Below the pieces are notes generated by a model that saw only the letters and a program-made list of their open reading frames with translations, did no database searches and was not told the DNA's origin. From contig CAYFOC010000001.1 of assembly GCA_964344615.1 (NCBI GenBank), positions 802 to 64,801 on the forward strand: a stretch of 64,000 nt of DNA, given 5' to 3'. Position numbers and translations under genes: made by a program. Shown one piece after another: positions 1 to 53,925 of this stretch; within the stretch, counting starts at the first letter, position 1; the number at the start of each line of letters is the position of its first letter. This DNA comes from an uncultured Methylococcus sp. (GTDB lineage: Bacteria; Pseudomonadota; Gammaproteobacteria; Methylococcales; Methylococcaceae).

Positions 1-1025
1 ATAAGGCACGGGTCAGGCTTCAGGCTTTAGTGACTGAAATCATGGAACGCCGCTCCAAGGAGCGCTCCGAAAGTCCTAACGTTTTCCAGACTCTGATTGA
101 TGCCGCCTATGAAGATGGCACGAAACTCACCCCTCATGAAATTACGGGGATGCTGATAGCGACCATTTTTGCTGGACACCACACAAGTTCAGGAACGACG
201 GCGTGGGTCCTGATCGAACTTCTAAGGCATCCTGAATGGATGGCGAAGGTGGTAGAAGAACTGGATCAGTTGTTTGGGAAGGACGGGGACGTCACGTTTG
301 AGTCCTTGCGTCAGATTCCGAATCTAGAAAGTGTTCTTAAGGAAGTTCTTCGTCTACATCCGCCTCTGATTATTCTGATGCGCAAGGTATTGGAGGATTT
401 CACGATCGGGGATACCACCATCCCGGCGGGCAAGTTTGTTTGTGCTGCGCCTGCAATCACTCATCGAATTGCGTCTTTGTTCCCCAATCCGGAACAGTTT
501 GACCCTGATCGATATTCTACAGAGCGCCAGGAGGACAAGAACCTTTATGCCTGGCAAGCGTTTGGTGGTGGACGTCACAAGTGTTCGGGGAACGCGTTCG
601 CACTCTTCCAGATCAAGGCGATCTTCTGCATCCTGCTTCGCCGTTATGAGTTTGAACTGGTCTCAGAAGCTGACACCTATCGCGACGACTATACGAAGAT
701 GGTGGTAGAGCCAGCATCCCCTTGCAAAGTTCGCTACAGGAGAAGGAAGACGACCCAGGAGGCCCTTGGCCAGGAACCCACAAATGGTTCAAAGGAAATA
801 AAGGATGAAGCCTCGCAAGGTGCAAGGATTGTTGTGGACATGGACCTTTGCAAGGGCCATGCAACCTGCATGGGAGAAGCGCCTGAACTCTTCAGAGTGG
901 ATGCAGAAGGGCAGTTGACCGTTTTGAATGATCGTCCGGATTCTGACCTCTTACCCAAGGCCAGAGCTGCTCAGCGTTATTGTCCCACCCAAGCCATCCG
1001 TATCGAAGGTGACGAGGGGGAGTAA
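1..1025 (+). CDS. cyp51: Sterol 14-alpha-demethylase (CYP51-type cytochrome P450) fused in frame to a C-terminal ferredoxin domain; the 5' end lies outside the window
   Basis: The frame is open from nt 3 with no stop upstream of the listed GTG at 30, so the window edge truncates the gene. Motifs: I-helix 'FAGHHTSSGT' (CYP51-type AGxHTS signature), ExxR 'EVLR', heme-thiolate loop 'FGGGRHKCSGNAF'. A polar linker 'RRRKTTQEALGQEPTNGSKEIKDEASQG' is followed by a ferredoxin module. Confidence 0.9.
   Translation, partial: KARVRLQALVTEIMERRSKERSESPNVFQTLIDAAYEDGTKLTPHEITGMLIATIFAGHHTSSGTTAWVLIELLRHPEWMAKVVEELDQLFGKDGDVTFESLRQIPNLESVLKEVLRLHPPLIILMRKVLEDFTIGDTTIPAGKFVCAAPAITHRIASLFPNPEQFDPDRYSTERQEDKNLYAWQAFGGGRHKCSGNAFALFQIKAIFCILLRRYEFELVSEADTYRDDYTKMVVEPASPCKVRYRRRKTTQEALGQEPTNGSKEIKDEASQGARIVVDMDLCKGHATCMGEAPELFRVDAEGQLTVLNDRPDSDLLPKARAAQRYCPTQAIRIEGDEGE
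822..1022 (+). other. Ferredoxin domain of the CYP51 fusion (3Fe-4S-like cysteine spacing)
   Basis: The last 67 aa are 'ARIVVDMDLCKGHATCMGEAPELF...RYCPTQAIRIEG'. The CxxHxxC...CP pattern is the one found in small actinobacterial-type ferredoxins and in the Methylococcus capsulatus CYP51-ferredoxin fusion (recalled, not aligned). Confidence 0.8.
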
Positions 1026-1029
1026 TTGA

Positions 1030-2208
1030 TCAGCTCAGCCGAGAATTGAGGTTGAGGCGGTAACGGCGGCCACGCCAATTGACTTCGCGTCGGATCCAGA
1101 TCTGAAGATAGATCAATGGTGCCGCCAGCCAGATGATCATGGAGCTCCAGGAGTACAGCCAGGGAATAGGCTGACCCGACATTCGATAGTGAAGGCTGTT
1201 GATGGTGAGGGGAACAGACAGCGCCGTAAGCAGCCCCAGCAGCAATATCCCCGGATTTCCGATAATAGCGCCATAACCAAACGCAAGGATGCCTGACCAA
1301 AGCGCAATTCCCGTCAGGGCGTGGGGAAGTTTGGTTGTCCAGAAGGGAAGGCCGGTGATGGAGAAAGCGATCCATCGGATCAAGATCCCGACGAAATCAA
1401 CAAAGGTGCAATCCTGCTGAATGATGGATACGGGCTTCGGAGCCAATAGATTCCGATAACCTTCCTCAACCATACGCCGACCAAGGTACATGTCGTCGAC
1501 CAATTGGCCTTCAGCAGTTTCGAGCCCGCCAATCGCAACGATGGCCTCTCTTCGAAGGACCATCATGTGCCCCATGATGAAGGGTAACGTTCCGCCATTA
1601 CGCTGAGCGGTCGCAAGGGCAGAGGGTTCATATAGTCCATTGACCATGACGGCATAGCCCGTGTCGCCAAGGGTATGCAAAGGGGCATTTGAGACCACTG
1701 TGGGAAAGGATGCACCAGCGCCTTCATCGGAGAGGAGTGTTGCCGCCAGGCGTTCAAGGTCCCCAGGCGACTGGCGGATATCTGAGTCCACGAAAGCAAT
1801 CAAGCTATGGTTTGCCTTTTCCATGGCTTTGATCATGGCATTGAGTTTGCCGGTGCGGTTGCGAGGTGGTTGGCCTGAAAAAAGGATTTCAGCTTCAGCA
1901 GGTAATCCAAGCTCAAGGCGCTCACGGATGACCGCTCTCACAATCGAGACTGCAGGGTCGAGATCATCATCAAAGACAAAAATTGTTTGGACCGGGCCAG
2001 AATAAGCATCTTCAAATCCTGCGATCACGTTTTCCCGAAGTCCGCTATCGACGTCTTTGATAGGGCGAATCACGGTCATCGAGGGGTAATGATCTGGGGT
2101 TGGAGGAAGTATGATCTTGGAGATCGCCAACCGTTGCGACATATAGAAAAACCAGACCCATCCAAGGAGGAGTCCCAGAGTAGCCAGAATGATCAAATTG
2201 ACGCTCAT
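1030..2208 (-). CDS. Integral-membrane family-2 glycosyltransferase, lipid-directed type (ceramide glucosyltransferase / HpnI-like)
   Basis: I moved the start to ATG 2208 (MSVNLIILATLGLLLGWVWFF, N-terminal TM) because the longer ORF (to 2292) overruns the stop of the upstream gene at 2219. Acidic motifs 'FVFDDDLD', 'FVDSDI', 'LVDDMYLG' and then 'LIRW' are followed by several C-terminal TM helices ending 'NWRGRRY'. The gene is convergent with cyp51, with only 4 nt between the stops. Confidence 0.75.
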   Translation of the reverse strand: MSVNLIILATLGLLLGWVWFFYMSQRLAISKIILPPTPDHYPSMTVIRPIKDVDSGLRENVIAGFEDAYSGPVQTIFVFDDDLDPAVSIVRAVIRERLELGLPAEAEILFSGQPPRNRTGKLNAMIKAMEKANHSLIAFVDSDIRQSPGDLERLAATLLSDEGAGASFPTVVSNAPLHTLGDTGYAVMVNGLYEPSALATAQRNGGTLPFIMGHMMVLRREAIVAIGGLETAEGQLVDDMYLGRRMVEEGYRNLLAPKPVSIIQQDCTFVDFVGILIRWIAFSITGLPFWTTKLPHALTGIALWSGILAFGYGAIIGNPGILLLGLLTALSVPLTINSLHYRMSGQPIPWLYSWSSMIIWLAAPLIYLQIWIRREVNWRGRRYRLNLNSRLS

Positions 2209-2218
2209 GGGGAATGTT

Positions 2219-2977
2219 TTATTTGGTGATCGAGGTAAGGAACTGGTTGTAAAAACCTTGGGCCACCCCCTTGCCTCCACGGGCGTTGGCAAGGGATACC
2301 TTGAGTTCCTCTTTGAGTTTCAGGTCAGAAAGCCTTGAGTCCGGTCTTATCGCGGCAAGATCCGCTCTTTCTAGAAATGGGAGTGCTTCCCCGGGTTCGC
2401 CTTCGTCCAGAAGGAAGTCCCCGTAGAAATAGTTGCTGTCCAGCCCATTGGGGAAGAGCCTGACGGCAGTTTCCAGATAGCTTTTCGCAATCTCATTGTC
2501 ACCGAATGAAATGGGCCAGCCGGGCAGCCTGTAATAGAGATTGCCAAGGATCACGTAAGCACTTCCGTCCATGGCCAAAGGATCGATAGCCAGCGCTCTT
2601 TCAACGAAGGATCGCGCTTTTTTGACGTGGCCTAGCGCGCTGAATCCTCCCTCATTGGCAGCCAAGGAGCATTGGATCAGTGCGGCAACGATCAAAGGTT
2701 CGGCCCGCTGAGGGAATTGTTGAATCAAGCTTTCCGCCTGGAGGCTCAATGGCTTGAGCAGTGCCAGCTGTTGATCTTCCGGCGTGGCGTAGAACGTGGT
2801 TTCCCACTGGTTCTTGATGATTTGAATGCTGGTAGGGTTCGGAACGTCTTCTGCCTGCGCGGGATGAATGAGGCTGACAAGGACTCCGAGGATGATGGCT
2901 GCGCGATTCAACGGACGCAGGACTTCTGCACGCTGTGTAGTCGAACTTGGGTAGGTAGGGCGGCCGATCTTGTGCAT
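2219..2977 (-). CDS. Secreted all-helical (TPR/TatT-like) protein, a paralogue of the lipoprotein at 6604-7407
   Basis: The signal peptide is 'AAIILGVLVSLIHPAQA/ED'. The C-terminal block 'ILGNLYYRLPGWPISFGDNEIAKSYLETAVRLFPNGLDSNYFYGDFLL' aligns by eye with 'LLGMLYLKAPPWPTGIGDGDKALSYLKEAVDHYGQHPLNHLFYAEALF' of the 267-aa protein. It lies 10 nt upstream of the GT2 gene, so the two are probably co-transcribed. Confidence 0.65.
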   Translation of the reverse strand: MHKIGRPTYPSSTTQRAEVLRPLNRAAIILGVLVSLIHPAQAEDVPNPTSIQIIKNQWETTFYATPEDQQLALLKPLSLQAESLIQQFPQRAEPLIVAALIQCSLAANEGGFSALGHVKKARSFVERALAIDPLAMDGSAYVILGNLYYRLPGWPISFGDNEIAKSYLETAVRLFPNGLDSNYFYGDFLLDEGEPGEALPFLERADLAAIRPDSRLSDLKLKEELKVSLANARGGKGVAQGFYNQFLTSITK

Positions 2978-3037
2978 GATGTTGAATCCCTGCGGGGGAT
3001 AGCGGGTTACTTGACCGACGATGCCTCGTCGAGCTCA

Positions 3038-3067
3038 ATAAAAAAACCCATGCACAGCATGGGTTTT
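3038..3067 (-). terminator. Rho-independent terminator ending the five-gene sterol operon
   Basis: The minus strand reads aaacccatgc-tgt-gcatgggttt followed by ttttttatt. This is a 10-bp perfect stem plus a U-tract, about 20 nt after the epoxidase stop (3089). Confidence 0.8.
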
Positions 3068-3088
3068 ATCGAGGCTGAAACCTCTGGG

Positions 3089-4582
3089 TTATTTCGCGAG
3101 CGCGCTCTGTTCCCGAATCCAGTGCTGCAGAGCAGTCTGAGGAATGCTCAGGCTCTTCTGGGCCAGTTTCAAAATGGACCTGAACCATCCGTATCCGGCA
3201 CCACGGCGCAGTTCGCTGGGCAGGAGTCGGAACGCTTGGAATACCACGACCACGAACTGCATGCCCATGGAAACGATGCTGCTATCCATGGTTGAGAGCA
3301 ATGCGAGGGAATGGGAGCGTCCCTTTGGATTGCTCTTCCAGTATTCGAAGATACAGCGGTTGAGCAATACGGACTCAGGAGTATGAGACAGGAAAGCCTC
3401 GCGCAATTCCTCAGAAAGAGTTCTGCGGGTGAGCTGTACGCGACCTGCCGCAATGGCGTAATCACGCAACGCTTTCTCGACATTCAGGTCGTGCTTGATA
3501 AGGGCATCACGGAGGCTCAACGCGTCCTTGACGGCGGTTGTAATGCCGGAGGCGGTTAGCGGATGACAGCAACCACGTGCATCCCCCAAAAGGGCCACGT
3601 TCATCTTCACGCTGCTTTTCGGGACAATCCGATAATTTGCGGCTGCCAACGGCTTGTCTCGCGCCATGGCAGCTTCGATGTCTTCCCGGAATGCCTTAGG
3701 GAAAGATTTGAGGTGTTCACGCACGGACTCTTTCGAGTCATCGCCTCTCAGCACTTCAAGCATGACGCGTGCACGTCCCTTTGAAACGCTGTAGGCATAG
3801 GAAATGCCGAGCGGATTTAGGAAAATATTGCCATGCTCGCGGGTCGGCAGGTGTCGATCATCGACTTCCACGCCCAACATGCCAGAGTAGCGGTGAGTTT
3901 CGTGGGAAATCCCAGTCAACTTGCGAACCTGAGACATACCTCCATCTGCGCCAATAATTAGCTTGGCGTTTACGCGGACATCTCCGTTTTCCGTGGACAC
4001 CACGGCAAAAGCAGTCTTTCCATCGCCCTCAGCAGTAATGGCCGTGACTCTTGGCCCCATCCACACGTCAACGCCATCGACTTTCTTTACCTTGTCGAGG
4101 AGATGATCCTTCAAGGCTTGGTGTTCAATGGCCATGCCGCCATGATCGAGGCCTTCGACTTCGCCATACGGCAAGACAACGTTGTCTTCGTACTCTTTTC
4201 CCTCATTGAAGGGGAAGATAGAGAATCCACGGATGATGGAGCCCAGTTCAGGCTTATCATCCAGCAAACCCAAGTGCTTTAGGCCATCAATCCCAGGCGG
4301 GTGAATGAGTTCCCCGGCGAGGCGGCGTCCGTGTGAGGACTTTGGTTCGATGATCAGAATCTTGAGGCCGAGCGGCGCGAGTGCGGCCGCAGCAGCGGAA
4401 CCGGCAACACCACCACCAGCGATAAGGACGTCAACGTCCACGGGAATATTCGCGTTATTTTCCATCATCAATCTGGTTGGACCCATCAAAGATTGAAGTA
4501 GCGAAGGTTGAAGGGCTTCGGATGAGGGGAATCCCCTCGTTTCGAAGCTATTGTGCCACAAAAAAGCAACAATCGTTGCCAA
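3089..4582 (-). CDS. Squalene monooxygenase (squalene epoxidase), FAD-dependent
   Basis: The dinucleotide fold is 'VDVLIAGGGVAGSAAAAALAPLGLKILIIEP'. The motif 'LLGDARGCCHPLTASGITTAV' matches the eukaryotic squalene-epoxidase motif GDAxNMRHPLTGGGMTV. The gene lies 9 nt downstream of the cyclase. The true start may be an internal Met (4486, 4468 or 4465), which would give a shorter N-terminus. Confidence 0.85.
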   Translation of the reverse strand: MATIVAFLWHNSFETRGFPSSEALQPSLLQSLMGPTRLMMENNANIPVDVDVLIAGGGVAGSAAAAALAPLGLKILIIEPKSSHGRRLAGELIHPPGIDGLKHLGLLDDKPELGSIIRGFSIFPFNEGKEYEDNVVLPYGEVEGLDHGGMAIEHQALKDHLLDKVKKVDGVDVWMGPRVTAITAEGDGKTAFAVVSTENGDVRVNAKLIIGADGGMSQVRKLTGISHETHRYSGMLGVEVDDRHLPTREHGNIFLNPLGISYAYSVSKGRARVMLEVLRGDDSKESVREHLKSFPKAFREDIEAAMARDKPLAAANYRIVPKSSVKMNVALLGDARGCCHPLTASGITTAVKDALSLRDALIKHDLNVEKALRDYAIAAGRVQLTRRTLSEELREAFLSHTPESVLLNRCIFEYWKSNPKGRSHSLALLSTMDSSIVSMGMQFVVVVFQAFRLLPSELRRGAGYGWFRSILKLAQKSLSIPQTALQHWIREQSALAK

Positions 4583-4591
4583 GCAACAACA

Positions 4592-6583
4592 TTAAACCCT
4601 TTGAATGTTGTGATTATACCGCGTCAAAGCCCAGACGGGGAAATATGTATGGTACAGACGGTAGTCCAGCATGGCCGCACCAAAAAACACACCATTAACG
4701 GCTTGCATGGGCCAGCTGCCATCCGTTTGCTGTTGCTTCAGAAGCCACACCATTCCATTTGCGATGGCTGGATGATCTGAAGGCAGAATATCCATCAGCG
4801 CCAGTAACGCCCAACTCGTCATGACCACCTGTGTTTCAGGATGCTCGATGTAGCGCTCTTCCAGGCAGCTCGTGTAATGCTCGCTCCATCCACCATCGTC
4901 CCTCTGGTGAGCGAGAAGAAATGCCGCTGCCTTCTGCATCAAGGGGTCATCAGCGCTCGTTCCTGAGGATCGGAGAGCTCTTACGGCGTGGAAAGTTGCA
5001 TAGGTGTAATTGATGCCCCAGAAACCCTGCCAGGAGCCATCTGCCTGCTGTTGGCTCTTCAACAAGCGAATGGCGCGCTGGGATGCCTCTTCAAGCCGGA
5101 CAGGCTCAAAATCCGGATCCAAATGCCGAAAGTGGCAGATGGCATCCAATGCTGAAGCCGTACACTCAATATAGGAGAGTTCCGTCATGCATTGACCGAA
5201 CATTTCAGAGGGATTGATCAGTTCCAGCAGCTTGCCGGCACGGCGCTGCTCGTAGGTGCCAAAACCCCCATCCTTGTTTTGTCTGGAAAGAATGAAGAGG
5301 ATGCCCTCACGCAGTCGATTGGGGTCAAACTTCGGGAGGTTGTGGTACGAGGGGCCCGTCTGGATGGTAATGATTCCGCTGATCGCCTCGGCCGTACAGT
5401 CGCTTACCGGCCATCGATGTTCGCCATCGGAAAAGCACCATCCTCCGGTCGCGGGGTCGCGCCAGTAGTTTTCGTATCCAGGTGCCTCATCACAGAGCTG
5501 TGCTCTGGACAAAAATGCAATTGCTTTTCCCATGGCGTCAACGGTGGATTCATCCGGTGACCTGATATTCGATACTGCCTGCAGGACAAATCCCGTATCC
5601 CAAGTATTTGAACGCGCGCCAACATATCGGAGTCCCTCATTTTCGTCCTCCCATCGCCAAGCCTCAACGCCCTGGATGCTCGGTTCAAGTTCGGGATGCT
5701 TTGAGTCGGCGACAAAAATTGCCAGCGTATTGAGAAGCCCATTGACCGGTGAAATGCCCTGATAGCATGTGGTCTTCTGCTCAAAAAGGATGCGATCAAG
5801 ACACACAGAGAGCGCCTTCTCACGAGTCTTCTTGCTGTGCCAGCGTTCAAAAATAGCCAGCCCATCGTAGATCAGCCGCAGCACCGGAGTGATCGGGACA
5901 TATACATCAGACTTGGCCAGTGCATGTCGCAGCTTCGAGAAGGGGATCTGATTGTAAGGCGTCGTATACAGTTCAGAACGGAGTGCTGAAACTAAGGGCT
6001 CAGGGAGATTGGCTACGAAACGCTTTCCACAAATGTAGGCCAGTCCAAGATAAATCAGACGGGTGTGGCAATAGAAGCGCCTTGGATGGAATGGGAGCCA
6101 TTCGGGCAGCAGAAACAGTTCAGGAGGAATGGCATTCAGACCCTTGTACTCATAGAGGCCAAGTATCGCGAGCCAAAACTTTCCCCAGGTCGGGATGCCC
6201 TCTACTCCAGTAGGTTGCTGGTGTAACCAGTTTCGTGCCCTCGATGCGACCGGGTGATCCGGCGCAACATCGATGAGTCGGAGTGCAACATACGCAAGGG
6301 TCGTGAAAAAAACATAGCCAGGCGATTCCGGGTGCATGCCCCAAGATCCGTCTTTGGCCTGTGTGACCTCGAAATGTTTGATGATCTTCTCGCGATCCGC
6401 CTGCGAGTAGGGTTGGCCGACGATCGTTCGCACAATGACAGCCTGTGCGAGGATCATGGTGCACCAGACCATTTCCCCCTCGAAATCTCCTCCTGTCTTT
6501 TGTTGCGAGAGAAGGTAACGAAGGGCTGCGTCCTGCGCTTGGGTTAACCGATCGTCTGTCAAAGGGGATATGGTTTCGGGCAT
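4592..6583 (-). CDS. osc: Oxidosqualene cyclase (lanosterol/cycloartenol synthase family)
   Basis: The protein is a 663-aa triterpene cyclase with QW repeats (e.g. 'QQADGSWQGFWG', 'QRDDGGWSEHY'). The catalytic motif is 'HRWPVSDCTAEAISG', i.e. VSDCTAE as in eukaryotic OSCs. No DxDDTA motif (squalene-hopene cyclase) is present. The gene is directly followed by the squalene epoxidase. Confidence 0.9.
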   Translation of the reverse strand: MPETISPLTDDRLTQAQDAALRYLLSQQKTGGDFEGEMVWCTMILAQAVIVRTIVGQPYSQADREKIIKHFEVTQAKDGSWGMHPESPGYVFFTTLAYVALRLIDVAPDHPVASRARNWLHQQPTGVEGIPTWGKFWLAILGLYEYKGLNAIPPELFLLPEWLPFHPRRFYCHTRLIYLGLAYICGKRFVANLPEPLVSALRSELYTTPYNQIPFSKLRHALAKSDVYVPITPVLRLIYDGLAIFERWHSKKTREKALSVCLDRILFEQKTTCYQGISPVNGLLNTLAIFVADSKHPELEPSIQGVEAWRWEDENEGLRYVGARSNTWDTGFVLQAVSNIRSPDESTVDAMGKAIAFLSRAQLCDEAPGYENYWRDPATGGWCFSDGEHRWPVSDCTAEAISGIITIQTGPSYHNLPKFDPNRLREGILFILSRQNKDGGFGTYEQRRAGKLLELINPSEMFGQCMTELSYIECTASALDAICHFRHLDPDFEPVRLEEASQRAIRLLKSQQQADGSWQGFWGINYTYATFHAVRALRSSGTSADDPLMQKAAAFLLAHQRDDGGWSEHYTSCLEERYIEHPETQVVMTSWALLALMDILPSDHPAIANGMVWLLKQQQTDGSWPMQAVNGVFFGAAMLDYRLYHTYFPVWALTRYNHNIQRV

Positions 6584-6603
6584 GTTGTTGGTGTTCGGGA
6601 GAG

Positions 6604-7407
6604 TTAGTGCGCAGCTTTGGTGATTTCGAGGATGACTTCGGCGAATTCTTTGTCCCAGATCACCCGGTTATAGCCCCAGGGGCCCTTGGCCAGAATGGTT
6701 TGGCCTCTTTGTATTTCTGCCTGAGCCTCTGTGGTTTTCTCATCCACCTCGAATAAGGCTTCCGCATAAAACAAGTGATTAAGTGGATGCTGACCGTAGT
6801 GGTCAACGGCTTCCTTAAGGTAAGACAGAGCCTTGTCCCCGTCACCGATGCCGGTCGGCCAGGGAGGGGCTTTCAGGTACAGCATTCCGAGCAGACGCAA
6901 CGGCCCCCCTTGATCAACGGCTTTCGAGAGTCGGGCGGCTGTCGTCAATTCATCTTCCAGGCGATGTAGGTTCTCAGCCGCCTGCACAGGGTGGTTGTTG
7001 ATGGCGAGGCCCAAGTTGGCAGCCAGATAATAGTGAACAGCCGCATCCTCCTTGCCGCCATTTGACAGGGCTCGTTCGGCAAGTTTCACGCCTTCGGCGG
7101 CGAGAGCTTCCCGGTCAGGTCCTGTAGGAAGTCTTTCAGCCAGATGCAGGGCAATTTCCGAAGATCGTGAAGATCGGATGAAGGCAGGCGTCGTGGATTT
7201 CCGCGCCAAATTCATCGCACACTGGAGATCCTCCGTTGATGTAGATGGACCAAGCGATGAAGATTCGGACAGTAGCTTTTCTTCTGTGATGTCTGCGCAA
7301 TTCCCATGCCCTACAAGGGCAACGATGCGATTGGGAAGGGCACTACAGGCGGAGAGAAGGGTCAGGGTCAGAAGCAAGCTGACCCGGTAACTCATGTGCA
7401 TCATCAA
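6604..7407 (-). CDS. bstC: Helical-repeat (TatT/TPR-like) lipoprotein, a BstC-like putative sterol-binding envelope protein
   Basis: The lipoprotein signal has the lipobox 'LTLLSAC'. The helical C-terminal block is shared with the 2219-2977 protein. Its start overlaps the stop of the upstream binding-protein gene (TGATG/TTGA at 7402-7407). The BstC assignment comes from family and context only. Confidence 0.6.
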   Translation of the reverse strand: MMMHMSYRVSLLLTLTLLSACSALPNRIVALVGHGNCADITEEKLLSESSSLGPSTSTEDLQCAMNLARKSTTPAFIRSSRSSEIALHLAERLPTGPDREALAAEGVKLAERALSNGGKEDAAVHYYLAANLGLAINNHPVQAAENLHRLEDELTTAARLSKAVDQGGPLRLLGMLYLKAPPWPTGIGDGDKALSYLKEAVDHYGQHPLNHLFYAEALFEVDEKTTEAQAEIQRGQTILAKGPWGYNRVIWDKEFAEVILEITKAAH

Positions 7408-8246
7408 TGACTCTTGTTCCAGAGGCTAATCATGGGATTAATTGCGGCAGGCGAAGCGGGGACAAAGGCGTCTATGGCAAACAGACCGCACAATTTCATC
7501 CCATCAGGGTCCTTGCAGAGGTTTGCAAGGGACTTTGCAAACCGTGCGCGCTCGTCGCTGGTGCTGGACTCCTGATTGGCCACGAGCCCCATCAATGGCA
7601 AGGGCGCCGAGGTGAAGACCGAGTCCAGTTCATGAGTCAAAGGAAGCGACCCGAGTGCAGCGAATTGCTGTCCATTGAGCAGTACCGCATCCAGTTCACC
7701 CTTGTCCAGAGCGCGCAAAGCACGGATAGCTTGTTTGCTGGCTTTAAGCTGAAAGTCTTGTTCTGGATTGATTTTCCCGGCGAACACAATTTTGCGGATA
7801 AAGCCTGCTTCCTCGAAAACCGTCCCGCCGATCGTTTTGCCCTTGAGGTCATCGAGTGAAGCAAAGCGTCCCTTTATCGCCACAAGATGAAACTGCTCTG
7901 TCGTTTCTCCGCGCATCTTGGGTTGGACGACGGGTTCAAGGTGAAGGCTGTCACGCTGCTCCAAAAAGATGCCCAGTGAGGTAATCGCGAATGCGGGATT
8001 ATTTTCGTTCAGAAGTTTCTTGCAACCCTCGACATCCGAAGAGAAGCTGCTGCTGAAGGTATTGGCAGGCCATCCTCCAACCCGTTCCACCACACTGAGC
8101 ATTGCAGACATCGCCTTATTGGCATCGTCTTCGCTCACGGGGCCACCCGGGTAGCAGACGACAACCGTTGAGGAAGCCGCAATCGTTGCGCCTGAAAAGA
8201 CGATTCCGATGATCAGGAGGATATTTCGAACAGATTGAAAGCTCAT
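7404..8246 (-). CDS. bstB: Periplasmic substrate-binding protein (PhnD-like type-2 PBP fold), BstB-like
   Basis: The signal/anchor is 'ILLIIGIVFSGATIAASS'. A PBP-like 'LDDLKGKTIGGT' segment is present. The gene lies 6 nt after the RND gene and overlaps the start of the next gene. No ABC permease or ATPase is nearby, so it is not a classical ABC importer component. Confidence 0.6.
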   Translation of the reverse strand: MSFQSVRNILLIIGIVFSGATIAASSTVVVCYPGGPVSEDDANKAMSAMLSVVERVGGWPANTFSSSFSSDVEGCKKLLNENNPAFAITSLGIFLEQRDSLHLEPVVQPKMRGETTEQFHLVAIKGRFASLDDLKGKTIGGTVFEEAGFIRKIVFAGKINPEQDFQLKASKQAIRALRALDKGELDAVLLNGQQFAALGSLPLTHELDSVFTSAPLPLMGLVANQESSTSDERARFAKSLANLCKDPDGMKLCGLFAIDAFVPASPAAINPMISLWNKSH

Positions 8247-8252
8247 TGCGAT

Positions 8253-10937
8253 TTATTTTTTCCGACGGGTAACAAGGATCAGTCCGATAGCGGGTGCGAT
8301 GAACAGCGTGGATGCGAGACAACTCAGGAGACCTATGGTGATATCAATACCCAGTCCCGAAACGCCTCGGTAGCTTGCCAATGTGATGGCGCCAAGTCCC
8401 GCGAGTTCCGTTCCGGCTGCGAGCAGAATGACGCGGCCTGCATCCAGTGCAATGCCGACCGGATCCCGACCCTCAAGGGCCATCCAACGATGACTGAGCC
8501 AGACGCCATAATCGACCGCCAACGCAATCACGAGTGGCAAAGCGATGATATTGGCGTAATTGTAGTGCAGCCCAGCGACTTTCATCACGCCAAGCATCCA
8601 TCCTCCGCCAATTACAAGCGGCAGAGCTGCCATCAATATGCCTTTAGGGGACCGAATGACGAAGCATAGCCAAGCCAGACAGACGAGGATGGCGGCTTTG
8701 GTTCCATGGCTGAAACTACTGACTACGGCCTTGGAGAAGACCTGATGCGTTGAGGGGAAGCCGGTTGCATCGGGAGAAACGGAGTACACCTCCTTCATCA
8801 GATCATCGAGGTTGTTCGGGTCATAGACACTTTTTGCAGGGTAGGCGTAGGCAGCCAGGGTGCCATCGGGCGCAACAAACCGCTCTCTTATTCCATCGGG
8901 CAGATCCGAAGGTGACAGCGGGGTGGTTTTTTGCCATCTTGAAACGGTCTCGAGGCCATGAGTGGCTGAAGCGATAAGTGCTCTGAGGAAAGCCTCTGAG
9001 CGTGCGCGACCTGAATCTGGCTCTTCTTCCAGGCGAATGAGGATGTCATTCATGTCCTTGTGGAGCGCCTCTATGCGGCTGACCAGCTCCTTGTTGCCCG
9101 AACTAAACGCCTGTTCTTCGTAGTCCTCAAGTTTTTCAATGGCCAAACGAAGGCTCTGACGAATCTTGAAGAACGTGGGTTCATCAAGGCCCTGATTGCT
9201 CAGTGTCAGGAGATGCTGACGTAGGACAGGTCTTGCGGCGAGCGATCCCAGACGATGCGCCTGCTCGATGCGTTCAGATCCATCGGCTGGGAAGAAACTG
9301 CTGATGGACTGCACTTTGGCTATCGTGGGGAGCTGCTGAGCGCCTTCTGTGATTCTCCGAATATCTTCTAACGTCTTGGCCGTGAAGATGATGATTTCGG
9401 ACTGATAATCTGTCTCTGTGACCAGCTTTCGTTGATATTCGGCGGCTTTGGAGTCTTTGGGGAGCAAAGACAAGACGTCGTAATCAAATTCCATGTCCAG
9501 ACCGGCATGGATGCCGAAAATGGCTCCGCCGGACGCGATCAGCACCAGGGCAAGCGCGACACTCCTGGGGAGTGTCGGTGACGTGGCGTCAACCTTTTTT
9601 ACCTTCTTCGCCTTCATTTTAGGAGGGAAGAGGGCATAGACGGCGGGCTGAACGACCCATGTGCTGATGAGGATCAGAAGAACACCACCTGCAGCGATGA
9701 TGCCGAGTTCTGCAAATCCCGGGAATTCGACCGTTGCCAGCGTTCCAAAGATGAAGAGGGATGCGCCACCGGCGGTTATGACGGCTGGAAAGGAATCGCG
9801 TATCCCAGTGCCGATCGCGTCCAAAAGCGGTAATCCTGAACGCCTGGCTTCGGCAATTTGTGAGGTCGTGAAAATGCCATAGTCCGCGCCGAGGCCAAAA
9901 AGGATGGCGAGGAAGCTCGATGTGATGATGGTGAGATGGCCCACGGTCAAATAGGCGAAGCCAAGACTCCAAAGTGCACCCAGACCCATCGGGATGAAAA
10001 TCGCAAGCGCCCACGGAACACTTCTGACGACGAGGAAAATGAGTGCGCCGATCAATCCCGCAGCGGTCCAGATGACCATCTTGATATCCCGTTCGATATC
10101 GATGTACTCCTCGTAGGCGATCGCAGGCAATCCGGTCAGAACGACATTCGGGGCCTTCAGGCCTTTTGCTTCAAAGTCATGGGCAAGTTCTCCGGCTGCC
10201 TTCTGAACTTTTTCATTCAGAGGCGCCAGCGTCTCAAAGTCTTCCCCCTTGGCCTTGGCATGAACGAAAACCAAAAGCATTCGGCCATCGTGCGAGGTGA
10301 AATACCCTTTGCCCAGTTGCTCAGCGCCAATGGCTTTGAGGATTTCTTCGAAATTGATATCTGCGCTTGAGGGCGGGTTGTTCAGCCAGCGTTGCCATTC
10401 CTGAAGAAACGCATCCGCCGCTTTCATACCGGTCAATGCCGCTTGAATATCCGGGGTATCAGAATCGGCCCCCGCATTGCTTGATGAGGCCAGCGCCATC
10501 AAGGATTCAAGGGACGCTCCTTTGATCGTGGATCCGGCCTGAAGCGCTTTTTCGAGCTGATCAAGCTGATCTTCTGGCAGCAAGAGGTAAAGATGGTCGT
10601 GCAAGAAGCTCGTGTCGATGCGATCTGTGGCTTGCGCAATTTCAGGGAGACTTCTTAGCTTGACTGCCAGTTCATGGGCAAAGGATTCCAGATCTTCGCG
10701 CGGAGCATTCTCAAGGATCACCACCAGGTCCGAGGAAGCACCGAAGGTGTCGAGATACTGGTTCAGTCGGTGCGCAACCTCCGTGTTCTGTGGCAACAAG
10801 GCCTGCCTTGATGTGTAAACCGGCAGGTGTGTCGCAGCAAGGATGGCAGCGAGTGAAATCAATAAGGCTCCGGAGAGAACCCACCAGGGGTGACGGGCGG
10901 AACCAAGGCTCAGGCGATAAACGAGAGTTTTCAGCAT
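8253..10937 (-). CDS. bstA: RND-superfamily inner-membrane transporter of the HpnN/MmpL type, BstA-like putative sterol exporter
   Basis: The 894-aa protein has two 6-TM bundles ('...ILFGLGADYGIF...' and '...VIALAVDYGVWLSH...'), each preceded by a large periplasmic loop. This is the typical HpnN/MMPL architecture. It is the first gene of the operon that ends with the cyclase and epoxidase. Confidence 0.7.
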   Translation of the reverse strand: MLKTLVYRLSLGSARHPWWVLSGALLISLAAILAATHLPVYTSRQALLPQNTEVAHRLNQYLDTFGASSDLVVILENAPREDLESFAHELAVKLRSLPEIAQATDRIDTSFLHDHLYLLLPEDQLDQLEKALQAGSTIKGASLESLMALASSSNAGADSDTPDIQAALTGMKAADAFLQEWQRWLNNPPSSADINFEEILKAIGAEQLGKGYFTSHDGRMLLVFVHAKAKGEDFETLAPLNEKVQKAAGELAHDFEAKGLKAPNVVLTGLPAIAYEEYIDIERDIKMVIWTAAGLIGALIFLVVRSVPWALAIFIPMGLGALWSLGFAYLTVGHLTIITSSFLAILFGLGADYGIFTTSQIAEARRSGLPLLDAIGTGIRDSFPAVITAGGASLFIFGTLATVEFPGFAELGIIAAGGVLLILISTWVVQPAVYALFPPKMKAKKVKKVDATSPTLPRSVALALVLIASGGAIFGIHAGLDMEFDYDVLSLLPKDSKAAEYQRKLVTETDYQSEIIIFTAKTLEDIRRITEGAQQLPTIAKVQSISSFFPADGSERIEQAHRLGSLAARPVLRQHLLTLSNQGLDEPTFFKIRQSLRLAIEKLEDYEEQAFSSGNKELVSRIEALHKDMNDILIRLEEEPDSGRARSEAFLRALIASATHGLETVSRWQKTTPLSPSDLPDGIRERFVAPDGTLAAYAYPAKSVYDPNNLDDLMKEVYSVSPDATGFPSTHQVFSKAVVSSFSHGTKAAILVCLAWLCFVIRSPKGILMAALPLVIGGGWMLGVMKVAGLHYNYANIIALPLVIALAVDYGVWLSHRWMALEGRDPVGIALDAGRVILLAAGTELAGLGAITLASYRGVSGLGIDITIGLLSCLASTLFIAPAIGLILVTRRKK

Positions 10938-11065
10938 GAAAAGTGATGCACAGTCGCAAAAATGGAATGGAAACTATTCTGCAAGAGCAGGTGTCTCACC
11001 CGGAGTGAGTGTCACGGGGGGCCCTGTGGCTCGCACTCATATTAACGGCGATAGAGAGAATACTC

Positions 11066-11470
11066 ATGATTAACCTTTACGGGCCAGCCATTGTTAAGGG
11101 TATTGGGCTTTTTCTGACCCTCTACTTCATTCATGTGGTCCTTTTGCCCCAGTTGGTAGGTGAATCGGCAGCAACCGGGGATTATCAGGGCTTATTGTAT
11201 GGGATCAATCAGCTCCTTGGATTGGCTACCTGCATGATTCCTGGTTTTATGGCTGCAAGAATGGCCGGACATCACGGCTTTCTTCATGGATTGCTGGTCG
11301 GAGGGATCAGCACGGTCCTGACCGCGTTGATGGCGATGCTGTGGTCGATCATTACCGGTGCAAAGTTTTTTGGACTCGAGATGCTTCCCTTCTGGCTCGT
11401 GATGAATGGGTTCCTATCGGCATTCGCAGGTCTTCTTGCGACGAACATGACCGAATCTGAAGAGGAATAA
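11066..11470 (+). CDS. Small integral membrane protein (about 4 TM helices), function unknown
   Basis: This is a hydrophobic ORF, 'MINLYGPAIVKGIGLFLTLYFIHVVLLP...'. ATG 11066 is preferred over GTG 11009. It is divergent from the sterol operon. Confidence 0.5.
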   Translation: MINLYGPAIVKGIGLFLTLYFIHVVLLPQLVGESAATGDYQGLLYGINQLLGLATCMIPGFMAARMAGHHGFLHGLLVGGISTVLTALMAMLWSIITGAKFFGLEMLPFWLVMNGFLSAFAGLLATNMTESEEE

Positions 11471-11570
11471 TTCGATTACGCGACTCGCGAACTTCCATAG
11501 CTCGGAACGGTGGTGGAATTCCCACACGTACGTGGGGGATAATGATCCCAATTCCCACCCGAGGCGCGAA

Positions 11571-49956: not shown

Positions 49957-51567
49957 CTAGTCTTTGCTGAAATCCACGTTCGCATCTTCCCCTGCCTTGA
50001 GTTTCCTCATTTCGACAGGTGAGATGCGGCCTCTGGACGAGACCTTGTCGTAGATCTCTCCAAAAGCCTGTCGGCAGAAAGGAAGACGGTCGCGCAGGCG
50101 ATCATAGGCTGAATGATCAAACATCTTTCGGAAGTCCTCTTCCGTAAGGAGCGTCTTGGCATAAAGCGCCTGATAACCCTGATTCTCGATCACGAACTTT
50201 TCCAGCGAGGGCAGAGCTTTGCGACCGTCAAAGCCGGTCTTCTTGGGCGTGCCGTAAGCCCCAATATCCACATACATCGGATCGCGCTCACCGTTTGGTG
50301 CCTCATAGGGATGAATTAGGCCGAGATGCTGTGGGTTGTCGAACACCGCCATCGGTGAGAGCCACAGCGGATATAAGTCGAAGTGGTCGTCAAAGTACTC
50401 CAGGGACTTTTTCAGCAAAGCCATCGGCATCAGCATATCCTGCACGACATGATGCTTTTCCCGAAGGCGTCGGGTTGTCTCGGTCTCGGTGTACTTCAGC
50501 AGTTCAATGCGTGGGGGCAGGGCCCAACCCAAAAGAAACCTGAACAAGGGGTTGTTGCCGAAAGTGATGATTTCCTCCATGGCCCAGAAGTAGCTCCGGG
50601 TATGACGGTGGAGGTAGTCACGGAGCGGAATGTATTCCACAACCTCTTTGCCGGCGGCAAGAATTTCCTCAACGTGTTTGTAGAACCAAGGCTTATACCA
50701 GCGACCAATCGGATTGATTGGGCCATCCTGACCGGCTTCATCGGTCAGATTTCCAATCATGACCACGCCCCGATCGCGGCTGTAGGTCAATGCTTCAACA
50801 TATTCATTCTCGACCGTGTTCCGGCAGGCCTGATCAAATGATTCTGTCAGGGCGTCAAGGCGTGTCTTCGGATGGTAGGACACTCGAACATATTTCTTGG
50901 CGGGGATGATCTTGAGTTCGGCCGCAACCAGAAATCCGAGCGTACCGTGACTCCAGGGGATGAGATGGAATAGTTCCGAGTTTTCATCGGCGGAGCAGTG
51001 CAAGAGCTTTCCTTCGGCCGTCACGATGTCGAAGGATTCGCAGATGAATTGGAATAACCCATATTTGTGGCTGCTGGTTTCAACGCCAAATCCCATGATC
51101 AGGCCGCCGACGGTGAGATCATCAAGTTCAGGGACAACGGGCAAAATCCAGCCCCGACTGATCAAGGTTCTTGAGATTTGTCCCATGCTTGCCATGGGTT
51201 CGACACGAACCGTTTGTCGCTCCTCGTCGATCGATAACAGGTCATACATCCCGATGTAGATGTTTCGGCGCGAGAGTTTGTATTTTGGAACCATCTCACT
51301 CATGGATTGCCATCCAGAGCGGGCCGTACAGAGTTGTTCCTTGGCGCCGTCCTTTTGCCATGCCTCGATTTGAGCGATGACCGATTCAACCCGCTGCTGG
51401 TGTCTTTGCGGCGCGGTTCGCATGCGGAAGAGGATGTGGTTGCGAATGAAGACGTAAGCGCTGTAGACCGTTGAAATCGGTAGTAGGCACACGGTTGCGA
51501 ACAGACCCCGATGGTGGGTCAGGATATATTCGAAGAGTTGCCCTGAGGCTTTCGTTTCTTGGGTCAT
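49957..51567 (-). CDS. Delta(24)-sterol reductase (DHCR24 / DWF1-DIMINUTO family FAD-linked oxidoreductase)
   Basis: Against my recollection of human DHCR24, long runs are identical or near-identical: 'VRVEP..(S/T)MGQ', 'PELDDLTVGGLIMG', 'SSHKYGLFQ', 'GTLGFLVAAE', 'IIPAKKYV', 'YKPWF.KHVE', 'EYIPLR.Y.HRHTRS.FW', 'FGNNP.FR.L.GW..PP.I.LLK', 'HHVVQDML.PM', 'YP.WL.P' and 'DIGAYG.P'. There is also an N-terminal TM helix and a 'AP..H..RV' segment. Confidence 0.85.
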   Translation of the reverse strand: MTQETKASGQLFEYILTHHRGLFATVCLLPISTVYSAYVFIRNHILFRMRTAPQRHQQRVESVIAQIEAWQKDGAKEQLCTARSGWQSMSEMVPKYKLSRRNIYIGMYDLLSIDEERQTVRVEPMASMGQISRTLISRGWILPVVPELDDLTVGGLIMGFGVETSSHKYGLFQFICESFDIVTAEGKLLHCSADENSELFHLIPWSHGTLGFLVAAELKIIPAKKYVRVSYHPKTRLDALTESFDQACRNTVENEYVEALTYSRDRGVVMIGNLTDEAGQDGPINPIGRWYKPWFYKHVEEILAAGKEVVEYIPLRDYLHRHTRSYFWAMEEIITFGNNPLFRFLLGWALPPRIELLKYTETETTRRLREKHHVVQDMLMPMALLKKSLEYFDDHFDLYPLWLSPMAVFDNPQHLGLIHPYEAPNGERDPMYVDIGAYGTPKKTGFDGRKALPSLEKFVIENQGYQALYAKTLLTEEDFRKMFDHSAYDRLRDRLPFCRQAFGEIYDKVSSRGRISPVEMRKLKAGEDANVDFSKD

Positions 51568-51615
51568 GGATCTTTTGCTACGTGCTTTTGCGCTAATGGG
51601 ATCGTCATATCAGAA

Positions 51616-51637
51616 AGCCCCTACGAGGGTAGGGGCT
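51616..51637. repeat. Perfect 9-bp-arm inverted repeat in the divergent DHCR24/sdmB-like control region
   Basis: The repeat agcccctac-gagg-gtaggggct lies 49 nt upstream of the DHCR24-like ATG (51567, minus) and 54 nt upstream of ATG 51691 (plus). Confidence 0.6.
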
Positions 51638-51690
51638 TCCTCTGTTGTGCCATGTTACCATTAGAGAAATTGCGCGAATATTCAGGAACC

Positions 51691-52701
51691 ATGACCTCGA
51701 CTCCGATTCTTGTCACAGGTGGCACGGGCCATCTTGGCGCCAATCTCATTCGCCGCCTCTTGCGTGACGGCCACGCCGTAAGGGCGCTGGTTCGCCCCGG
51801 CCGAGACAATGGGGCGTTCGATGGCCTTGATCTTGAAGTGATTGAGGGCGATCTCAGGGATCGCGCGGCCGTTGAAAATGCGGTGCGCGGTTGTCGTAAG
51901 ATCTACCATTGCGCGGCTCATGTTTCGACGATCGAAGGGGATGCCGCGCACAAGCGTGAAATCTTTGAGTCCAATGTTCTTGGAACAATGAATCTCCTGG
52001 ATGCTGCAAAATCATTGGGCGTTGAGAAGGTGGTTGTTTCAGGCTCTCTGAGTGCAACCGGCTATGAAAAAGGGGTACCGAGCGTTGAGTCGGATCCTTT
52101 CTATCCCTTTGACCGGCATCTGCCTTACGGCTTCACCAAGCATTTGGTGGAACATCATTGTCTCAGAGCGCATGCCGATGGGCTGGATGTCGTTGTCGCT
52201 GTTTCCTGCGCGATCATAGGACCTAACGATTTTGTTCCCTCGCGGTTCGGGCAGGTGCTGATTGATTTTGCCCATGGCAAACTGAATGCCTACATTCCGG
52301 GCGGATTCGAATTTGTCTCGACCGAAGATATTGTCGAGGGACACGTGTTGGCGATGGATAAAGGTCGTTCTGGCCAGAAGTATCTGATCAGTACCACGTA
52401 TTCGACCGTAGATGATCTTCTAGACCTCTTTTCAGAGGTCACCGGGAAGCCAAAGCCACGGCTTCGCCTCCCGATTCCGGTGATGGCAGCCATCGCCGGA
52501 GTGATGGATACGCTTTGGTTCAGATTCTTCCCGAATCAGCCAAGACGTTTTACACCCGCAGCTGTTCGACTGCTGAGCATGCATCGTAAGGTCGATAATT
52601 CGAAGGCCAAGAACGAGCTCGGCTACCAGCCAACGTCTCTGCGCGATGCTGTGCAATCCGCCTATGATGACTTTGTCAGACGAGGTCTGATTCGGCGGTG
52701 A
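51691..52701 (+). CDS. sdmB: NAD(P)-dependent extended-SDR (3-beta-HSD / epimerase-dehydratase family), SdmB-like sterol C-4 demethylation reductase/decarboxylase candidate
   Basis: I moved the start to ATG 51691, which has AGGA upstream. The Rossmann motif is 'ILVTGGTGHLGANLIRRLL' and 'LPYGFTKHL' carries the YxxxK catalytic pair. The gene sits immediately upstream of a Rieske oxygenase and divergent from DHCR24. The symbol is assigned by context. Confidence 0.6.
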   Translation: MTSTPILVTGGTGHLGANLIRRLLRDGHAVRALVRPGRDNGAFDGLDLEVIEGDLRDRAAVENAVRGCRKIYHCAAHVSTIEGDAAHKREIFESNVLGTMNLLDAAKSLGVEKVVVSGSLSATGYEKGVPSVESDPFYPFDRHLPYGFTKHLVEHHCLRAHADGLDVVVAVSCAIIGPNDFVPSRFGQVLIDFAHGKLNAYIPGGFEFVSTEDIVEGHVLAMDKGRSGQKYLISTTYSTVDDLLDLFSEVTGKPKPRLRLPIPVMAAIAGVMDTLWFRFFPNQPRRFTPAAVRLLSMHRKVDNSKAKNELGYQPTSLRDAVQSAYDDFVRRGLIRR

Positions 52702-52767
52702 CGCCCTTATTCCCGAGACGGACTTTTTTGTTTTCCTGTCCCCTATTCAGATGATACGGAGTGCCCC

Positions 52768-53925
52768 ATGAGGGATCCCCTTGATGACCGTGAATTAACC
52801 CCGCCCCCCTCGTTCCAGGAATCGCGCAGTACAAGACAGAAAGTACGCGCCGCCGGGTTGGATCCCGATCGTTGGTATGCGGTTGAGTATGACCGTGAAA
52901 TCAAGAAAGGCGAAATCAAGGAAGTTCAGTTCTGGAATCTGTCGATTGCTCTGTTTAGAGGAGAAGATGGGACCTTGTCTGCTCTCCAGAACCGGTGCCC
53001 GCATCGTCATCTGAAGCTCACGCATGGTGTTGTCGACAAATGCCAGGTTCGCTGCGCCTATCACGGCTGGTCTTTTAATCGGGATGGCTGGCTCACCGAC
53101 TATTCGCATGACAGCTTCGGTAAGCCACTGATCAAGAGCAAGCTGAGAACGTTTCCTGTAGAAGTCCGCTATGGCCTCGTCTGGCTGTTCCCGGGCGACC
53201 CTGATCTTGCCTCTGTTCGGAAAATCCCTGAAATTCCTGAACTCATGACGGACGATCCTTGGGCCGGGTTTACGGTCGACTATACGTGGAAGACCCATCA
53301 TTCCATGGTGATCGACAATATCTGCGACTTTGCGCATGCCTTCCTGCATCGGAAGTATCAGCCGTTTGTTGATGCAAAGTTGACCCACTATGAGGCGGAT
53401 GAGGACAAGGTTTATCTGACTTATGACACCTACATGGCCGAAGGTAAATTCTCCAAGTATTTCGTCAACCGCAAGCGGGTTAACACCCGATCGATTGAGA
53501 TCTGCTACGAATATCCTTACCAATGGTCAAATACAGGGAACAGCATCAAGCACTGGTGCTTCCTCCTTCCGATCGACGAACGGACAACGCGCGTATTCTT
53601 TATCTTCTACTTTGATAGCGTGAAGATTCCGATGATTCCGTTCAATGCACCGAAATGGCTGACACAACAGGTGCTTAATGCGTCCGTGCCGCTTCTATTC
53701 AAGCCCTTGCTGGCGGAAGATGGTGTCGCCCTCGAGGCCGAGCAGATCGGCTATGAGGAGCATTGGAATGCGCCACCCATTGAGCTGAACCCGATTGTGC
53801 CCTTGCTTCAGAAGTTGACGGTTGAGCAGTGGCAGAACTTCCTTGATCGAACAGCCGCTGCGGCGTCAAAGCCGAAGAGCCGGTCTGAAGAAGAGAAGCC
53901 TTCCGAAGTGGCCGAAGCCGTATAA
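52768..53925 (+). CDS. sdmA: Rieske [2Fe-2S] non-heme-iron oxygenase, SdmA-like sterol C-4 methyl oxidase candidate
   Basis: The Rieske motif is 'CPHRHLKLTHG...CAYHGW'. The mononuclear iron site is 'DNICDFAHAFLH'. The gene lies 66 nt downstream of the SDR gene. The symbol is assigned by context. Confidence 0.6.
   Translation: MRDPLDDRELTPPPSFQESRSTRQKVRAAGLDPDRWYAVEYDREIKKGEIKEVQFWNLSIALFRGEDGTLSALQNRCPHRHLKLTHGVVDKCQVRCAYHGWSFNRDGWLTDYSHDSFGKPLIKSKLRTFPVEVRYGLVWLFPGDPDLASVRKIPEIPELMTDDPWAGFTVDYTWKTHHSMVIDNICDFAHAFLHRKYQPFVDAKLTHYEADEDKVYLTYDTYMAEGKFSKYFVNRKRVNTRSIEICYEYPYQWSNTGNSIKHWCFLLPIDERTTRVFFIFYFDSVKIPMIPFNAPKWLTQQVLNASVPLLFKPLLAEDGVALEAEQIGYEEHWNAPPIELNPIVPLLQKLTVEQWQNFLDRTAAAASKPKSRSEEEKPSEVAEAV

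Follow-up and report, generated by a model that had tools for sequence, protein, structure and literature searches.

The first 11 kb of a 64,000-nt stretch of DNA from an uncultured Methylococcus sp. (contig CAYFOC010000001.1; the whole stretch is called the window below) in all likelihood hold the genes with which an uncultured member of the Methylococcaceae makes and traffics sterols, a cluster orthologous to the system of Methylococcus capsulatus. On the minus strand the genes for three putative sterol transport proteins (bstA, bstB and bstC) are followed by those for a 2,3-oxidosqualene cyclase (osc) and a squalene monooxygenase (smo), and a gene for a CYP51-ferredoxin fusion (cyp51) converges on this row from the left edge of the window. 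The system and the gene arrangement were already published in 2024, and NCBI annotation models already carry the names BstA, BstB and BstC; the locus adds another example of a known system.

Sterol biosynthesis enzymes

The initial annotation had assigned the cyclase to the oxidosqualene rather than the hopene type because of its motif VSDCTAE, which is indeed present in the translation (WPVSDCTAEAI, residues 393-399, with the Asp as residue 395). The assignment also held in a profile hidden Markov model search of NCBIfam: the protein passed the model for 2,3-oxidosqualene cyclase (OSC; TIGR03463, 925.9 bits, cutoff 851) and failed the one for squalene-hopene cyclase (SHC; TIGR01507, 274.9 bits, cutoff 431). 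Among the structures of the PDB, human lanosterol synthase (1W6K) was matched with an E-value of 8e-131 over 630 residues, the SHC of A. acidocaldarius only with an E-value of 4e-51. By these curated model scores and PDB E-values the OSC and SHC classes are decisively separated, and the predicted enzyme falls on the OSC side. In the alignment to 1W6K, human D455, C456, C533, H232 and Y503, which we take to have catalytic roles, are each matched by an identical residue in the window OSC. At human positions 381/449/453, presumably those that discriminate between products, the window OSC carries A/H/V; human lanosterol synthase has T381/C449/V453 there, and the M. capsulatus enzyme (from locus L034) has the same A/H/V. 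As lanosterol is the cyclase product in M. capsulatus, this agreement points to lanosterol as the product most likely made from oxidosqualene by the window OSC as well.

In the translation of smo the epoxidase motif GDAxxxxHPLTxxG, which had been noticed earlier, reads GDARGCCHPLTASG. Both expected Pfam domains were found (PF08491 SE, 79.4 bits, cutoff 20.1; PF01494 FAD_binding_3, 93.8 bits), and among PDB entries human squalene monooxygenase (6C6N, E 3e-23) ranks first, before other flavin monooxygenases. The two proteins align over ~410 residues and have the motif in common, with a modest overall similarity (85.7 bits); at the N-terminus the window OSC and SMO are both shorter than the human enzymes. 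NCBIfam holds no equivalog model for squalene monooxygenase, and smo matched only models of generic flavin hydroxylases there, each with a score under the cutoff. In a close relative (metagenome contig L004) the ortholog is called at 459 aa, which corresponds to Met39 of the maximal smo open reading frame (ORF) in the window. The probable start of smo would thus be Met39 at ~4468, leaving a gap of ~123 nt to osc, so that the earlier description of the epoxidase as lying 9 nt downstream of the cyclase holds for the longest ORF (with a TTG start) but not for the probable start.

The cyp51 frame is open from base 3, and the gene extends beyond the left edge of the window. As had been described, a CYP51-type P450 with the motifs AGHHTSS and FGGGRHKCSG is fused to a ferredoxin, in that the P450 part is followed by a 4Fe-4S domain (Pfam Fer4_15/Fer4_13). 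The M. capsulatus fusion (PDB 6MCW) has the same architecture of P450 and then 4Fe-4S ferredoxin, with both motifs identical; it was matched with an E-value of 2e-145 across the P450 and ferredoxin parts (residues ~211-532 of 551 aa). Compared with it, the window holds the C-terminal ~60% of the protein, whereas the N-terminal half with the B' helix signature lies beyond the edge. The closest PDB matches of the window P450 are all CYP51, down to an E-value of ~1e-36. In E. coli, the fused Cyp51-ferredoxin of M. capsulatus converts lanosterol to 4,4-dimethylcholesta-8,14,24-trienol (PMC13277303).

The transport proteins BstA, BstB and BstC

What had first been described as an RND pump, a periplasmic binding protein and a lipoprotein could be identified from the best NCBIfam matches and from the PDB as BstA, BstB and BstC. 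These proteins were named by Zhai et al. 2024 (eLife, PMC10942540), who showed that they bind 4-methylsterols and solved the structures of BstB and BstC; a 2024 review that repeats the transport model gives Kd values (dissociation constants) of 2.4-4.4 uM for BstA/B/C and 4-methylsterols (PMC11713862). The window BstA matched model NF045600 from end to end (residues 8-893 to model positions 7-902) with 1272.9 bits, BstB passed model NF045601 (386.7 bits, cutoff 350), and for BstC model NF045602 was the sole NCBIfam match (306.7 bits). BstB is 57% identical to the M. capsulatus protein MCA1014 (7T1M, E 9.5e-93) and BstC 52% to 7T1S (E 8e-72). Docking and molecular dynamics had led to a list of residues that would form the sterol pockets (PMC10942540), of which the BstB pocket rests on docking and is not experimentally verified. 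These residues are more conserved than the proteins as a whole: 19 of 22 are identical in BstB in the 7T1M alignment, with Glu118 and Asn192 retained, as are 12 of the 16 residues of the hydrophobic cavity CA1 in BstC in the 7T1S alignment. The latter include Glu86 (aligned to window Glu91), which matters for sterol binding according to mutagenesis (PMC10942540). The three transport proteins are thus likely to be orthologous to M. capsulatus BstA/B/C, even if curated thresholds do not certify this throughout, and on the strength of its context BstA is likely a divergent ortholog.

Another cargo is conceivable, namely that BstABC move hopanoids or some other polycyclic or apolar lipid, with BstA being an HpnN-like exporter that merely lies beside sterol genes. 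Methanotrophs are rich in hopanoids, and the hopanoid transporter HpnN provides both the best solved relatives of BstA (5KHN, E 1e-27; 6WU0, E 7e-25) and its second-best NCBIfam models. HpnN is likewise named as the nearest solved relative of BstA in PMC10942540, and within the TatT family, which includes BstC, other proteins are fatty-acid binders (PMC11713862). However, the score of the BstA model is 3.6 times higher than that of the better of the two HpnN models (348.5 and 215.2 bits); BstB and BstC, besides keeping the proposed pocket residues, are 52-57% identical to proteins that prefer 4-methylsterols (PMC10942540); and the bst genes are tightly spaced with osc and smo in ~15 species. 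A hopanoid or other lipid cargo is therefore highly improbable, and we retain sterols as the putative substrates.

Gene layout and transcription

In the ORF map the minus-strand row runs bstA, bstB, bstC, osc, smo, followed by a gene for a tetratricopeptide repeat (TPR) protein and one for a GT21 glycosyltransferase (Table 1). The junction coordinates of the initial annotation proved exact for the ORFs of bstA, bstB, bstC and osc. The genes are spaced by 6 nt (bstA/bstB), a 4-nt overlap (bstB/bstC), 20 nt (bstC/osc) and at most 123 nt (osc/smo), and a terminator-like hairpin stands 22 nt past the smo stop, which supports a five-gene unit. A similar hairpin occurs 3' of smo in one relative (L008), while the hairpin scanner detected none after smo in another (L004). 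From the spacing and the hairpin, bstA-bstB-bstC-osc-smo are probably one co-transcribed unit; given such a tight co-directional row ending in a terminator-like hairpin, the machineries for sterol scaffold synthesis and for trafficking would probably be co-expressed. The single transcription unit proposed in the initial annotation can thus be kept for these five genes but not for cyp51: this gene is read from the plus strand, toward the minus-strand row, and therefore cannot belong to that unit. Moreover, the TPR and GT21 genes, which that annotation did not contain, lie between smo and cyp51.

Table 1. Features of the sterol loci in the window (coordinates refer to the window)
Feature	Coordinates	Strand	Predicted product	Basis
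cyp51	1..1025	+	CYP51-ferredoxin fusion (putative sterol 14-alpha-demethylase), C-terminal ~340 codons	Pfam p450, Fer4_15, Fer4_13; 6MCW
GT21 gene	1030..2211	-	GT21-family (ceramide-glucosyltransferase/HpnI-like) integral-membrane glycosyltransferase	Pfam Glyco_transf_21, 74.5 bits
TPR gene	2219..2977	-	Secreted TPR protein, putative distant TatT/BstC-like paralog	BLASTP, NCBIfam, Foldseek
Terminator-like hairpin	3043..3067	-	Probable end of the bstABC-osc-smo unit	11-bp stem and T-run
smo	3089..4468 (maximal ORF to 4582)	-	FAD-dependent squalene monooxygenase	Pfam FAD_binding_3 and SE; 6C6N
osc	4592..6583	-	2,3-oxidosqualene cyclase, 663 aa, probably lanosterol synthase	TIGR03463, 1W6K
bstC	6604..7407	-	TatT-superfamily lipoprotein, lipobox LLSAC, 267 aa	NF045602; 7T1S
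bstB	7404..8246	-	Periplasmic substrate-binding protein (PhnD-like fold), 280 aa, N-terminal signal peptide	NF045601; 7T1M
bstA	8253..10937	-	Inner-membrane RND (MMPL/HAE3-type) putative sterol transporter, 894 aa	NF045600; Pfam MMPL
DHCR24-like gene	49957..51567	-	FAD oxidoreductase (putative sterol delta-24 reductase)	Pfam FAD_binding_4
sdmB-like gene	51559..52701	+	Putative NAD(P)-dependent reductase (C-4 sterol demethylation)	Pfam Epimerase, 3Beta_HSD
sdmA-like gene	52768..53925	+	Putative Rieske oxygenase (4-methylsterol monooxygenase)	Pfam Rieske, VanA_C

Divergent from bstA and 71 nt apart from it lies the gene of a predicted membrane protein of 153 aa (11009-11470, plus strand) with a weak match to DUF3792/TIGR04086. 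In every relative with the bstABC-osc arrangement this gene stays beside bstA, with ubiF beyond it.

With 0.53-0.54, the first 12 kb have the same G+C content as the window on average and thus give no hint of recently imported DNA. On this ground, and because the flanking ubiF and small-membrane-protein genes are syntenic across species, a recent horizontal acquisition of the cluster was rejected.

Distribution of the gene order among relatives

One genome per GTDB species was scanned with the window OSC, which yielded 80 loci, and ten window proteins were then searched by tblastn against the fetched loci. The order ubiF<, small membrane protein<, bstA, bstB, bstC, osc, smo ... <cyp51fx (arrowheads: reading against the row; cyp51fx, the CYP51-ferredoxin fusion) was found in metagenome contig L004 and in ~15 species representatives (loci L007-L010, L013-L021, L042 and L059, with L011 and L012 partial), all labelled Methylococcaceae or uncultured Methylococcus. 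The OSC proteins of loci sharing the order are 65-82% identical to the window OSC, with a maximum of 76% in the species representatives and 82% in L004. The window itself would come from an uncultured, probably freshwater, lineage of the Methylococcaceae. In the window and in ~15 Methylococcaceae representatives, the bstABC genes are thus adjacent both to one another and to sterol biosynthesis genes. In Methylocaldum, Methylotetracoccus, Methylolobus, Methylumidiphilus and M. capsulatus, osc-smo occurs without adjacent bst genes.

Some of the loci carry labels that call for comment. A replicon of 5.3 Mb with osc, smo and cyp51 (L029, NZ_CP194902.1) is named 'Methylocaldum sp. GT1BB plasmid unnamed' and is presumably a mislabelled chromosome. 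On a contig labelled Pseudomonas fluorescens ISL-62 (L079) we found an OSC homolog of 43% identity (10001-11941) with a CYP51-like gene ~3 kb away (15289-15999), and further OSC homologs are present in metagenome-assembled genomes (MAGs) labelled Dehalococcoidia (L086), Rhodothermales and Arenicellales. The OSC homologs under these four labels stem either from unexpected hosts or from binning or contamination artefacts.

A second sterol locus and the remaining window

About 39 kb from the first locus a second one was found at 49957-53925, where an sdmA-like and an sdmB-like gene are adjacent and both encode the expected domains. The best NCBIfam match of the sdmA-like protein is SdmA (NF052579, 385.4 bits; next match E 1e-7), that of the sdmB-like protein SdmB (NF052578, 305.4 bits), with HpnA second at 235.5 bits. 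For homologs of the DHCR24-like protein (66-89% identity), JGI gives the name 'delta24-sterol reductase' and NCBI, in the case of Methylocaldum, 'related to human 24-dehydrocholesterol reductase'; these names are source annotations only.

The remaining window is mostly made up of housekeeping genes (ubiF, acyl-CoA ligase, ilvBHC, leuA, sucAB, moaA, kup, argG, nrdB and gltBD). Between argG and thiE lies an ORF of 374 aa (38388-39512, plus strand) for which no Pfam or NCBIfam match was obtained at the thresholds used.

Proposed pathway and direction of transport

In the pathway that we propose, the smo product would epoxidise squalene, the osc product would protonate the epoxide via the Asp of VSDCTAE and cyclise it, most likely to lanosterol, and the convergently transcribed CYP51-ferredoxin fusion would remove the 14-alpha methyl group. 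The SdmA/SdmB-like and DHCR24-like enzymes encoded ~39 kb away may then strip one C-4 methyl group and reduce the side-chain double bond. Driven by the proton-motive force, BstA would take 4-methylsterols from the inner membrane and pass them to periplasmic BstB, from which they would reach the outer-membrane lipoprotein BstC. Co-transcription, the sterol products of the organism, and transport with its direction are what we infer from the genes and their order. A conduit from the inner membrane through the periplasm to the outer membrane has been proposed before (PMC10942540). The idea of an integrated make-and-export system, which had been put forward for this DNA, is supported by the gene identities and is the hypothesis already published for BstABC (PMC10942540, PMC11713862).

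Several points weigh against an orthologous, co-transcribed and exporting system. BstA and BstC miss the equivalog cutoffs of their NCBIfam models (1400 and 350 bits, respectively), and the scores of the SdmA- and SdmB-like proteins are far under the cutoffs of 600, so that orthology is likely but not certified. In BstB, Tyr120, one of the three proposed head-group contacts, is Phe. A promoter scan of 1-12 kb gave 4 sigma-70-like sites where 6.0 are expected by chance, none of which stands out, and an internal promoter could fit into the ~123-nt gap between osc and smo. The newly described 8,14-sterol reductase (8,14-Bsr, NTF2 family), which the methanotroph pathway needs (PMC13277303), was not seen among the scanned unassigned ORFs of the window, a scan in which very small ORFs were not exhaustively covered, nor was it found next to cyp51 in L008. 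As for the published system itself, bst deletions failed in M. capsulatus, and binding was shown while transport is undemonstrated for any BstABC (PMC10942540, PMC11713862). Finally, binding-protein-dependent and TatT-type systems are usually importers, and it is from the gene context that we infer export.

BstABC might accordingly form a reverse or two-way system that retrieves or redistributes sterols from the outer to the inner membrane or takes up exogenous sterols. The families of BstB (periplasmic binding proteins) and BstC (TatT) are classically tied to uptake, whereas RND/MMPL proteins such as HpnN and MmpL3 export envelope lipids. That no transport assay exists for BstABC (PMC10942540) also counts in favour of this possibility. 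Against it, the row opens with the transporter genes and continues with the first two genes of the biosynthesis, an order more in keeping with supply than with salvage, and in M. capsulatus the sterols are synthesised in the cytosol but reside in the outer membrane (PMC10942540). Taken together, we consider transport in the reverse or in both directions quite improbable and favour the putative export of 4-methylsterols towards the outer membrane.

The TPR protein and the GT21 glycosyltransferase

The TatT-like/GT21 gene pair is the sole unexplained part of the locus and the only lead remaining there. These two genes are probably a unit separate from the smo row. The TPR protein has local similarity to the window BstC (BLASTP E 4e-8); the similar segment aligns to BstC LGMLYLKAPPWP, a stretch with the equivalents of Lys174-Ala175-Pro176 and the start of the 175-184 loop, a loop described in PMC10942540. 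For its confident AlphaFold2 model (pLDDT 83) the top Foldseek matches in the PDB are TatT/TPAT (8G52) and BstC (7T1S), which are weak (E 3e-4, TM 0.52-0.57) and rank marginally above generic TPR proteins. A true BstC was rejected for this protein (33.9 bits with the NCBIfam BstC model, E 2e-8, cutoff 350), and so was the hopanoid enzyme HpnI for the GT21 protein, whose best NCBIfam match it is, but at 99 bits and thus far short of the cutoff of 310.

Only in the closest subclade does the pair sit between smo and cyp51. Named homologs of the GT21 protein come from Methylococcaceae and from Myxococcota-type MAGs. The neighbour of the GT21 gene is the BstC-like TPR protein in Methylococcaceae relatives, a preceding START-domain protein in three Myxococcota-type loci (L001, L088 and L089), and a preceding protein of the fatty-acid-hydroxylase/sterol-desaturase superfamily in Ca. 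Methylocalor (L090). As the neighbour varies yet is lipid-themed wherever one was found, the GT21 protein looks like a lipid glycosyltransferase whose lipid-handling partners can be exchanged.

One step further, the pair might be a sterol- or triterpenoid-conjugating module, in which the glycosyltransferase glycosylates a sterol or related lipid and the BstC-like partner hands over or receives the lipid. A hint in this direction is that Methylococcaceae and Myxococcota, the hosts of the GT21 homologs, are two of the main sterol-producing bacterial groups. On the other hand, ceramide is the classical substrate of GT21 enzymes, and the related HpnI works on hopanoids; in L006 the pair is found at a great distance from sterol genes, in L002 and L087 the GT21 gene lacks such a partner, and the terminator-like hairpin stands between the pair and smo. 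A conjugating module is thus rather unlikely. The link of the pair to sterols is speculative; it might connect to the conjugated sterols of unknown structure in sterol-producing bacteria, to which no enzyme has been assigned (PMC10202945).

Comparison with known systems

How bacteria make sterols matters for the question of the evolutionary origin of these lipids and for the interpretation of sterane biomarkers, and BstABC is, to our knowledge, the only machinery proposed so far by which bacteria would move the sterols they make. As a compact unit of five genes, the row described here would lend itself to transfer into a heterologous host.

The nearest system outside the sterol context is HpnN of Burkholderia multivorans (5KHN/5KHS), which belongs to the same HAE3/MMPL branch of the RND proteins as BstA and is likewise proposed to move a polycyclic triterpenoid toward the outer membrane. 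It differs in forming a separate family tied to hopanoid (hpn) rather than sterol genes, and no BstB- or BstC-like partners are described for it in the literature consulted.

The BstABC proteins of M. capsulatus are of the same three families in the same order (MMPL-type RND, PhnD-like binding protein, TatT-like lipoprotein), and their genes are likewise co-localised with sterol biosynthesis genes. The companions of the bst genes differ, however: M. capsulatus has the operon sdmA-sdmB-bstA-bstB-bstC (PMC10942540, PMC11713862) and in its locus L034 no bst gene within 10 kb of osc-smo, whereas in the window bstABC head the osc-smo row and the sdmB/sdmA-like genes lie ~39 kb off. That bstABC adjoin osc and smo in some methanotrophs was reported before (PMC10942540), and the locus is conceptually not new. 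It adds that the transporter genes head the osc-smo row across a clade of uncultured freshwater Methylococcaceae, unlike in M. capsulatus, where they stand with the C-4 demethylase genes; the osc-smo-linked arrangement thereby lends modest extra support to a functional link with sterol transport.

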